From the NCBI GenBank assembly GCA_964648855.1, contig CAZYLT010000034.1, forward strand, positions 1 through 12,917: a DNA stretch of 12,917 bases, in the 5' to 3' direction. The notes below the pieces were generated by a model, which had not been told where the DNA came from, did no database searches, and worked only from the letters and a program-made list of their open reading frames with translations. This DNA comes from an uncultured archaeon. GTDB lineage: Archaea > Asgardarchaeota > Thorarchaeia > Thorarchaeales > Thorarchaeaceae. Positions 3,971-12,917 of this stretch are shown one piece after another. A program made the translations under genes and the position numbers. Numbering within the stretch: position 1 is the first letter of the stretch; each line of letters begins with the position of its first letter.

Positions 3971-4602
3971 TCAAGTGTCCCTTTTTATGAACAGGAATAA
4001 GTCAAATGATTGACTACAGCATCTCAATTTTCCGAAGACTATTTCGAAAGAACCATCACTTATGCATAATATTTAGAAGACAAACATGACTCGATTGAAA
4101 TTTCTTGGAACTCGTGCGAATACGGATGCTACTAGCCCCTATCATTCAAAACATTCGGGAATTCTTCTTAACGAGAAAATTCTCTTCGATTTGGGGGAAG
4201 ACGAGTTTCTTCAATATGAACCGGAAGTCATCTTCATAACTCATCTCCATCCTGACCATGCTGTCTTCATTCTCGAAGATATTGAGATAAAGGTACCAGT
4301 CTATGCACCTGAAGAGTCTGATGAGATTGAGATCAGGGTCATGCCTGATATTGTCGAACGTGAAACATGTGCGGTATTCTCAATACCGACAATTCATAGC
4401 AAATTAGTGAGATCACAAGTATATCTCATAGAAGGCGAACACAGGATTCTTTACACTGGAGATATGGTCTGGATCGAGAAGAAACATCATGATGCTTGTG
4501 GAGAACTTGATCTGGTAATCACTGATGGGAGTTTCCTTAGAGAGGGCGGTAGAGTGACGGGGGATAAAGAAGGCAGTATTTGGGGGCACAAAGGCATAAA
4601 CT

Positions 4603-4640
4603 ATTTCTGACAGATTGAGTGACCTCAACGTGTCTGAAAT
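4603..4640. repeat. Subterminal imperfect palindrome of the element
   Basis: ATTTCTGACA-GA-TTGAG-TGAC-CTCAA-CG-TGTCTGAAAT, with one mismatch in the outer stem and a 2x2 internal loop. Confidence 0.8.
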
Positions 4641-4750
4641 TTCTGTGTTCCACCCTTCCCCTGCCAGCGTCACCGCCCCCAGCGTACCCGAAGGCCACTG
4701 AGTCAGCAGGGGCTTTGTCCATGGTCATCGGGATGGTATCCCTCCCATGG
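4603..4750 (-). ncRNA. Putative structured RNA module within the element
   Basis: On the minus strand CCCCUGCU/GGCAGGGG closes a junction containing a cUUCGg hairpin and a GUGA (GNRA) hairpin. Several G-U pairs work only on the minus strand. Expression is not shown and boundaries are uncertain. Confidence 0.45.
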
Positions 4751-5407
4751 TCCTGGTCTCTTCCTCCTGTGTTGGTGCTGATGCATAACTCTCAGCCACA
4801 GCGAGGCTTTCCACAGTTCTTCCCACGGCGGGTTCATGATCACCCTTCCTGGCTCCGTCACCGAAGGCAGCAAGACTCGTCTGAGCATGGTGAACAGCCG
4901 CGGACTCTCCGGGAGATGATGTTCTCCTTTCCTTGGAGAGTAAGGACCTCCGTCAAGAAGTCGTGGACTTCCCTCAGGCTTTCGGCAGCGAGCTCCGCGA
5001 GATGTTGGTGGCCCACTCACCTAGTCCAGTAGTGAGTCTGACTGGGGCCATTTAAGCTCCCACAGAATTCATGGTGAGCACAGCCAGAGGAAAATCTGAC
5101 ACTTCTATTGGATAATTTAACTAGAAAACGAGGGGGTATTGCATAATTCCTGATTTGGTAGAGTTCTTCAAGCCTTATACAAATCATATTGTCTTTACGC
5201 ATCTAGGAAAATGGTTTTACGGAAATGCATCGGAATCCAGAAGAAAAGTAAAGTCATTATCAAGACAGGTACACATAGACCTCGCTTATGATGCAATGCT
5301 TCTCGATTTGGAATAGATTGGTTAAGAAAATCCATCCAAGAGCACTTTATCACAACAATCAAATCAATTCCCTTGTAACATACTCAAACACACTTGAGGA
5401 ATGAACG

Positions 5408-12424: not shown

Positions 12425-12874
12425 TCAGTTCCCAGACATCTCTCCAGGAGGGCAGTTTTCCATGAATTCAGATTTCAAGATGTCCATTACAATCGCATCC
12501 TCATATCTGCCGCCTGAATACATGTATTGTCTAATCTTGCCCATTCGTTTGAATCCGGCTTTTCTGTATGCTCTTTGAGCACGCTTGTTCGACTCCATAG
12601 TATACAAATGGATACTATTTAGCCCTAGTTCATGAAATCCTATCCAGAGGGTAGTTTCTGTGGCATCCGTTCCATATCCCTTTCCCTGTTGTGCAGGATC
12701 ATGTATTGCAATGCCAAACTCCGCATGCGAATTTTCCGGAGAGATTCGTGAGAGTCCCACAGTACCGAGGAATTCTTGAGTTTCTCTATCCTCTATCGCA
12801 AGAGTAAGATTGCCGTCCTTCCAAGGGGTTTCTTTTGTGGCTCTTTCAAGCCATTCTCGTTCATGTTCTCTAGA
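12425..12874 (-). pseudogene. RimJ/RimL-type GNAT acetyltransferase, N-terminus cut off by element copy 2
   Basis: Reads SREHEREWLERATKETPWKDGNLTLAIEDRETQEFLGTVGL...AEFGIAI...QQGKGYGT...NKRAQRAYRKAGF. Upstream of 12874 the sequence is element DNA rather than GNAT. Confidence 0.85.
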
Positions 12875-12917
12875 TAAACTATTTCTGACAGATTGAGTGA
12901 CCTCAACGTGTCTGAAA
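12874..12917. mobile_element. Second copy (terminal 44 bp visible) of the 4596-5145 element, truncated by the window end
   Basis: ATAAACTATTTCTGACAGATTGAGTGACCTCAACGTGTCTGAAA is identical to 4596-4639 and in the same orientation, with a different upstream flank (CTCTAG versus AAAGGC). Confidence 0.9.

Follow-up and report, generated by a model that had tools for sequence, protein, structure and literature searches.

aCas1-TnpB elements of Asgard archaea were reportedly noted by Makarova et al. already in 2020 (CRISPR J). In the readable part of a later article, the TnpBs associated with the Cas1 homolog aCas1 fall into two Asgard-linked groups, Cas1H-Asgard-1 and Cas1H-Asgard-2 (Altae-Tran et al. 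2023, PNAS, PMC10691335). The same text states that "aCas1 is likely to be the transposase" and describes loci that are flanked by repeats, with a GTTCACTCA conserved downstream of tnpB and a hypervariable region upstream of that GTTCACTCA (PMC10691335). We analyzed a 12,917-bp stretch of DNA, hereafter the window, which is the entire contig C34 of a Thorarchaeota genome (G000, hereafter the source genome; 3.1 Mb, 62 contigs, 94.6% complete). In the window, a net insertion of 550 bp at positions 4596-5145 splits a gene for a hydrolase of the metallo-beta-lactamase (MBL) fold. We conclude, at a probability of roughly 0.8, that this insert derives from a 7.7- to 8.3-kb aCas1-TnpB transposon of Asgard archaea (Thorarchaeota), as a miniature form that encodes no protein.

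The original prediction, made from the letters of the window, had regarded the insert as unassignable and as a possible sign of an undescribed archaeal system. That reading is replaced here. The element belongs to the known, barely characterized aCas1-TnpB system, in that it carries a recognizable piece of tnpB (blastx E 2e-18) and has its RNA and right end in common with intact tnpB loci. Like the aCas1-TnpB loci in the readable part of the 2023 article, the loci studied here have tnpB beside a Cas1 homolog, flanking repeats, and GTTCACTCA downstream of tnpB; unlike the published loci, the window element is gene-less and 550 bp long. The readable text of PMC10691335 contains no mention of TnpB-less mini-elements, their abundance, a 6-bp TCNNGA duplication, or defined left and right ends (LE and RE). 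Nor does that readable text hold a hairpin reading of the RE, the giant size of the Cas1 homolog, or its PD-(D/E)xK and RecA-like domains. The 2020 paper and the 2023 supplements may cover part of the anatomy of the mini-elements and their parents. Our literature search found no paper that combined Thorarchaeota and TnpB.

The insertion and what it carries

The 5' part of the MBL-fold gene (4086-4595, plus strand, from the open reading frame (ORF) list and sequence) contains the HLHPDH motif and ends in GHKG. The 3' part, from IPDLVEFF to the stop codon, lies at 5146-5316 on the plus strand (ORF list and comparison with G075). G075, a genome of the same genus, has an intact ortholog of 229 amino acids that is 84% identical to the 5' part and in which the two parts meet at ...AAAGGC|ATTCCTGA... 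(GHKG-IPDLVEFF). Deletion of exactly 4596-5145 from the window gave the same frame as in G075. The coordinates of the split after GHKG and of the resumption 550 bp further on, both given in the original prediction, were therefore exact, and the empty allele that it had suggested seeking in sister genomes is present in G075. Several of its other observations were also borne out. The insert is GC-rich (0.57-0.59, compared to approximately 0.44 in the surroundings), the repeat finder reported no terminal inverted repeats (TIRs) between its ends, and it contains no intact ORF with a transposase domain, only a TnpB tail of 101 codons with two stops. Its end is repeated verbatim in another gene: the 44 nt at 4596-4639 are 100% identical to 12874-12917, which lie where the contig ends, within a GNAT-type ORF on the minus strand. 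The MBL-fold gene is inactivated by the insertion unless the element leaves the transcript, and we found no support for such removal.

The insertion was delimited by comparison with the empty site, by its genomic copies, and by homology to the 3' end of tnpB, and its functional strand is the minus strand. The decayed tnpB piece comprises the C-terminal 101 codons (4728-5030, minus strand), has two in-frame stops, and overlaps the structured RNA described below. By blastx, it was 43-50% identical to the TnpB C-termini of the source genome itself, and the element as DNA was 66-73% identical to the 3' ends of four opposite-strand ORFs of 557-624 amino acids. These four ORFs match Pfam Cas12f1-like_TNB / OrfB_IS605 as well as solved TnpB structures, with the zinc ribbon intact and the NADRN motif present.

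An omega-RNA-type structured RNA of approximately 430 nt extends on the minus strand from near a conserved GGACTAGG (5020-5027) to the RE, at 4597-5027. Its consensus was obtained with RNAalifold from 32 aligned copies, drawn from many genomes, and 500 shuffles and slid pairing partners served as controls. The consensus has 99 pairs, 98 of which are retained in the window copy. Paired cells amounted to 95.8%, compared to 88.3% in the shuffles and approximately 42% with partners slid, and compensatory (two-sided) changes were present in 49-50 pairs compared to 28.6 in the shuffles, with none of the 500 shuffles as high. Rfam gave no match in the whole window at E <= 1. A TATA-like box, TTAAAT (5050-5055, minus strand, read from the sequence), has its start 28 nt upstream of GGACTAGG. 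At the corresponding position, which is coding sequence in full-length copies, ATTAAATA, AATAAATA or CTTAAATA is present in other TnpB-less copies. The box is a candidate promoter of the RNA, and the RNA of short copies is apparently self-promoted. About half of 30 sampled loci were TnpB-less, and every one of these was truncated just upstream of the RNA start.

Like miniature inverted-repeat transposable elements (MITEs), the short copies are non-coding, multi-copy deletion derivatives flanked by target-site duplications (TSDs) and would be mobilized in trans by a parent. Unlike MITEs, they have no TIRs between their ends, a distinction already drawn in the original prediction, and about 80% of their length is conserved structured RNA rather than filler.

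Ends, target sites and copies

Folding of 32 copies defined the RE (4597-4640, minus strand), which terminates in ...AGTTTA, with its end at 4597; this terminal sequence is preceded by a 38-nt hairpin at 4603-4640 (AUUUC-A-GACA-C-GUUGAG[GUCA]CUCAAU-C-UGUC-A-GAAAU). The terminal 60 nt of all 32 copies gave the same hairpin with compensatory changes, and its arms covary across subfamilies (UUUC-AGACA...UGUC-AGAAAU compared to UUUCUUGCA...UGUAAGAAA). Downstream of the hairpin is AG(G/T)TTA, and then the element ends. The loop and 3' inner stem contain GGTCACTCA (4618-4626, minus strand), which is GTTCACTCA in most relatives and corresponds to the GTTCACTCA motif reported for aCas1-TnpB loci in the readable text of PMC10691335. 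We read the published "hypervariable region" as the 5' arm of this covarying hairpin and not as a spacer. The LE, of approximately 64 nt (5084-5147, minus strand), was recognized from aligned copy ends and from an nhmmer LE match beyond the giant gene in a full-length element, L083. Between the ends of the short element, only a subterminal TGTCAGA is in common; in the LE it lies at 5095-5101 (minus strand, aligned copy ends), and in the RE the same motif is the 3' arm of the hairpin.

A BLASTN count of copies had been suggested with the original prediction. Blastn and an nhmmer profile recovered five full-length copies from the 3.1-Mb assembly, namely the window copy (C34) and those on contigs C8 (91% identity), C6 (82%), C20 (78%), and C56 (78%), together with approximately 14 fragments that lie at contig ends and are 90-100% identical, and with several remnants, or about 15-20 copies overall. 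The insert is not an assembly chimera, because the element is multi-copy in this assembly. More than 10 copies have the same LE-to-RNA junction, are 90-100% identical, and differ in target sites and flanks. Ten junctions of the younger copies adjoin long open frames, of which 7 are on the RNA strand and 3 on the other, so that the element interrupts several genes.

Other forms were also seen in the source genome. One deletion form (C1:207714-208148) has a piece of the TnpB zinc ribbon (TNB) fused to the last 250 nt, and another (C29:18275-18754) retains 128 codons of the C-terminus, with 78% identity to the TnpB of C19. C11 (26986-30984, minus strand) holds, in the correct order and 3.7 kb apart, an LE-like end at 30913-30984 and, at 26986-27178, an RNA with RE that is partly deleted; two unrelated-looking ORFs on the other strand separate them. 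This arrangement may have come about by cargo capture, by nested insertion, or by chance.

Complete copies are flanked by 6-bp direct repeats with the consensus TCNNGA, and the repeat sequences differ among copies. Perfect duplications were TCTAGA (C8, L046, and L077), TCAAGA (L048), TCTTGA (L047), TGTAGA (C56), TCTGGA (L083), TCAGGA (L084 and L114), TCCAGA (L115), and TCATGA (L117). Older copies have hexamer pairs with one to three mismatches. The 44-nt repeat at the end of the window is part of a second copy, identified by repeat comparison, with its duplication TCTAGA at 12869-12874 and an RE cut by the contig end at 12875-12917; the GNAT-type gene that hosts it (ORF and repeat comparison) lies at 12425-12868, and all three are on the minus strand. 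The RE junction of this copy reads ...AGTTTA-TCTAGA-GAACATG, its LE junction at the start of contig C36 reads ...CCTCAT-TCTAGA-GTGATGC, and the uninterrupted GNAT gene of G075 has a single hexamer, CCTCAT-TCGAGA-GAACATG. Because the filled GNAT site has two hexamers and the empty site one, the TCNNGA repeats are a true 6-bp TSD. No empty site for the full-length element L084 was found in the two other genomes of the genus g15. In the window's MBL copy, the hexamer adjoining the LE is TCAGGA (TCCTGA on the plus strand) at 5148-5153 (minus strand), which fits the consensus. A composite target, with TCTAGAGTGATCTAGA as the pre-existing site, was rejected; TCTAGAGTGATCTAGA had 0 occurrences in the genome.

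IS200/IS605 elements insert 3' of a tetra- or pentanucleotide without target duplication. The loci studied here resemble IS200/IS605, IS1341-type elements, and palindrome-associated transposable elements (PATEs) in several respects: a structured RNA overlaps the 3' end of tnpB, TIRs are lacking, the RE has a hairpin, and there are short derivatives in which both the ends and the RNA are preserved. The window element could thus be a PATE-type derivative of IS200/IS605, moved as single-stranded DNA by a Y1 HUH TnpA acting in trans and leaving no target duplication; the tnpB remnant, the 3' structured RNA, the RE hairpin, the lack of TIRs, and the lack of a 6-bp duplication at the MBL copy itself would all fit. 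However, the perfect 6-bp repeats of eight sequences and the empty site with one hexamer make this very improbable. Y1 TnpA (Y1_Tnp, PF01797) was not found in the source genome and was present in 4 of 86 genomes of the family, compared to 54 with the RNA core of the element, and each intact tnpB examined in the source genome and in g15 pairs with the Cas1-like giant gene rather than with tnpA. The Cas1-like partner and the long TnpB (557-624 amino acids) are further differences from IS200/IS605.

The resolvase domain PF00239 (IS607-type serine recombinase) and the IS110 DEDD domain PF01548 were likewise not found in the source genome, and no serine recombinase TnpA lies between the ends of L083 or L084, unlike in IS607 and in IS110/bridge-RNA elements. 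Among the families named in the original prediction, IS200/IS605 remains the nearest by cargo, but the 6-bp TSD and the failure to find a Y1, IS607, or IS110 transposase speak against placing the element in any of them.

Removal of the element and one TSD copy would precisely restore every reading frame, as would be the case for a mobile archaeal intron. In such an intron, CTAG-containing target copies would form the central helix of a motif of the bulge-helix-bulge (BHB) type, the tRNA-splicing endonuclease would excise the element, and the insertions would be harmless. By inspection, TCTAGA and TCTGGA in RNA form are self-complementary, and the ten younger-copy junctions at long open frames, with their 7 to 3 excess on the RNA strand, would agree with this as well. 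The likelihood of an intron is nevertheless very small in our view. When the two junctions of each of five copies were joined and folded by minimum free energy in either orientation, no BHB appeared, and the flanking inner helix of the canonical copy was weak, with 3+2 pairs by hand. The TSDs TCAAGA, TCTTGA, and TCAGGA are unable to self-pair, and the window copy has a single hexamer and is antisense to the MBL gene. An insert of approximately 30 nt with an in-frame TGA, which lies inside the NYGQMTAG motif of hutU (urocanase; C24:~21850-21885, locus L092), is unlike the element ends.

Full-length elements and their giant protein

The full-length relatives of the insert are 7.7-8.3 kb long and contain tnpB and a gene for a protein of 1,500-1,900 amino acids. 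The original prediction had suggested looking for longer, ORF-bearing copies with both ends, and such copies were found in g15. L083 has the order TCTGGA-LE-giant gene (antisense)-tnpB-RNA-RE-TCTGGA over 7.67 kb, with solely tnpB and the giant ORF between its ends and no TIRs seen; L084 has TCAGGA on both sides and is 8.3 kb long. The TnpB-less copies of g15 (560-570 bp) share with the full-length elements the RE and, at 88-91% identity, the first approximately 65 nt of the LE, and this sharing of both ends establishes the two forms as derivative and parent. In the g15 genomes the LE is multi-copy (24 matches in G078), and in G078 the 560- to 570-bp form recurs many times in copies with their own TSDs.

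The gene tnpB is head-to-head with the giant ORF in L083, in L084, and in all 4 intact tnpB loci of the source genome (C19:36419-43600, C28:2809-9900, C21:12300-18965, and C4:179290-186802; loci L031-L033 and L041-L044). The four pairs of the source genome are only 24-58% identical to one another and may be old, immobilized or domesticated copies. The module on C21 lies beside a tRNA-like sequence. Two fragments of the giant gene (C4:3-4256 and C22:3-388), which match each other at 93% identity across 271 nt, lie at contig starts and begin with one and the same codon, at about residue 186; that of C4 has one in-frame stop and that of C22 is internally deleted. These fragments suggest an unassembled, collapsed, recently duplicated parent upstream.

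Alternatively, the TnpB-less copies could have arisen by independent decay of full-length insertions, with the RNA merely the part that decays most slowly. Deletion forms other than the short element do exist, such as those at C1:207714-208148 and on C29 (128 codons) and the internally deleted giant gene on C22. However, independent deletions would not yield identical junctions, and more than 10 copies at separate target sites have the same LE-to-RNA junction at 90-100% identity. The repetition of the 560- to 570-bp form in G078, with separate TSDs, also counts against independent decay, and we consider it improbable.

The source genome encodes four giant ORFs of 1,538-1,829 amino acids, with mutual identities of 24-28% (E 1e-64 to 1e-96). 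More than 166 clusters make up the family; all of them derive from metagenome bins of Thorarchaeota/Promethearchaeia and bear the name "hypothetical." A feature search of ESM-Atlas gave scores of <= 0.77 and weak AAA/PDDEXK leads only. One protein (P0001) was modeled with AlphaFold2 and family alignments as residues 1-620 and residues 600-1160, with predicted local distance difference test (pLDDT) values of 82.8 and 75.7, respectively. Foldseek alone gave Cas1 and Cas4 at E 0.07-1 only; the match was clear with VIA-align. Residues 1-263 aligned to the catalytic alpha-helical domain of Cas1, and all of the top 24 rows were Cas1 or casposase (Z 13.4-7.3). The best Cas1 match was 4n06_B (Z 13.4, root-mean-square deviation 3.7 over 186 residues), and casposase 6opm_C had Z 12.1. 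The family consensus contains GPLNALLNYAGARLR and H..LDFVDMIRAH, which we take to be Cas1-like motifs, and the invariant E88, H195, and D205 (P0001 numbering) are candidates for residues on which integration would depend. Residues 285-575 aligned to PD-(D/E)xK nucleases, namely the DinG N-terminal domain (Z 7.2), AddAB (Z 6.6), Cas4 (Z 4.7), and Dna2 (Z 4.5), and D405, E427, and K429 are invariant or near-invariant. Residues 600-900 had a RecA/KaiC/DnaB-like fold at a Z of about 12. In this region (L083:11815-12715), the family consensus at the P-loop position is SPTSSGN, which is lysine-less, and the domain may be a degenerate ATPase. Taken together, the models predict an N-terminal domain with the fold of the Cas1 integrase, next to it a PD-(D/E)xK nuclease, and then a domain of RecA-like fold.

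Casposons have TSDs of 14-15 bp. The elements described here are like casposons in that a Cas1-fold integrase is the presumed transposase (a fold match only, 6opm_C) and in that the target is duplicated. They are unlike casposons in their 6-bp TSD. No TIRs were seen, and the sequence between the ends showed no PolB gene in L083 or in L084. Moreover, the alignment of the Cas1-like domain is confined to the catalytic, C-terminal half of Cas1, the protein combines this domain with a nuclease and a RecA-like domain, and TnpB and its RNA are aboard.

We surveyed the distribution of these components in 86 genomes of the family, in which kinship inflates the counts of co-occurrence. The RNA core was present in 54 genomes and the giant protein in 49. 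Both were present in 45, the giant protein only in 4, the RNA only in 9, and neither in 28. In the genus g14, the partner of the giant genes is a second type of TnpB of approximately 720-733 amino acids (Pfam TNB 6e-11) that is only distantly related to the type of 544-624 amino acids (loci L093-L096, on C14, C27, and C6 of G074 and C26 of G073; for example, L095:11004-13157). The element profile detected no RNA near these loci. The two TnpB types agree with the two "Cas1H-Asgard" groups, as those are presented in the readable part of the 2023 article.

Mobilization and significance

The claim of the original prediction that the element is recently active, non-autonomous, TIR-less, and mobilized in trans is supported, and the element has many copies. 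It is derived by an internal deletion that took the giant gene and the first approximately 80% of tnpB and spared the LE, the RE hairpin, the TATA-like box, and the whole of the omega-type RNA. In the mechanism that we propose, the aCas1 giant protein of full-length copies would act as the integrase and would join the element ends to staggered positions 6 bp apart within TCNNGA. Short copies could then be mobilized in trans by aCas1 through the LE and RE that they have in common with their parents.

Several points weigh against this account. The window's MBL copy has no second TSD hexamer, and its RE runs directly into host sequence. The copy is 7 bp short of a canonical insertion (the second hexamer and one host base), or, equivalently, 0-2 bp are duplicated; a canonical insertion followed by loss of 7 bp at the RE junction, or an aberrant integration, could produce this structure. 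A full-length element with matching LE and RE was not assembled in the source genome. The four intact tnpB-giant modules of that genome have diverged RE tails, and no LE was found beside them or past the C4 and C22 giant fragments. The LE type of the source genome has only a short similarity to the LE of the g15 full-length elements (nhmmer E 2.6e-4, ATAGAAGTGTCAGATTT core). As for the giant protein, Pfam and NCBIfam searches of the four giant proteins, and a Pfam search at E <= 10 of 65 giant N-terminal regions, gave no Cas1 or other credible family. A PDB sequence search with one giant protein and a 6-sequence profile gave no match. The modeled Cas1 match is to a helical domain, for which a Z of approximately 13 is possible without kinship, and catalysis is putative. 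Finally, the conserved RNA reaches within 6 nt of the element end and is followed by the TSD, which leaves no obvious place for a TnpB guide.

In the logic of IS605, the transposon-associated motif is on the left flank, the guide comes from the right flank, and the occupied site is spared from cleavage. This logic is not directly transferable, because the RNA ends inside the element and the duplicated target follows. Short copies would be retained with an intact, self-promoted RNA because that RNA would work with TnpB in trans. An extension of this idea, that RNA-only mini-elements are kept with their own promoter because the RNA that they encode serves in trans to programme TnpB, or else the Cas1-like integrase, is in our judgment unlikely. 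If it were true, a Cas1-type integrase, a Cas4-like nuclease, an ancestor of Cas12, and dispersed guide-type RNA genes would cooperate in one mobile element. That element would represent a living counterpart to the transition from TnpB transposons to type V CRISPR, or an RNA-guided Cas1 transposon.

As far as the readable literature goes, aCas1-TnpB loci have so far been only a probable transposon family. To this our analysis adds sequence evidence of recent mobility, in the form of a filled site with its empty counterpart, disrupted genes, and young copies that are nearly identical. It also defines the ends, the 6-bp TCNNGA duplication, and the RE hairpin, and it identifies the commonest form of the element as a 550-bp copy in which only the RNA of the nuclease is kept. 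With LE and RE substrates, a target motif, and protein domains specified, a Cas1-integrase transposon with an RNA-guided nuclease is now experimentally approachable. The findings raise the question of why protein-less copies retain the RNA. For the annotation of Thorarchaeota genomes, they account for many islands of "orphan structured RNA" and for many contig breaks.

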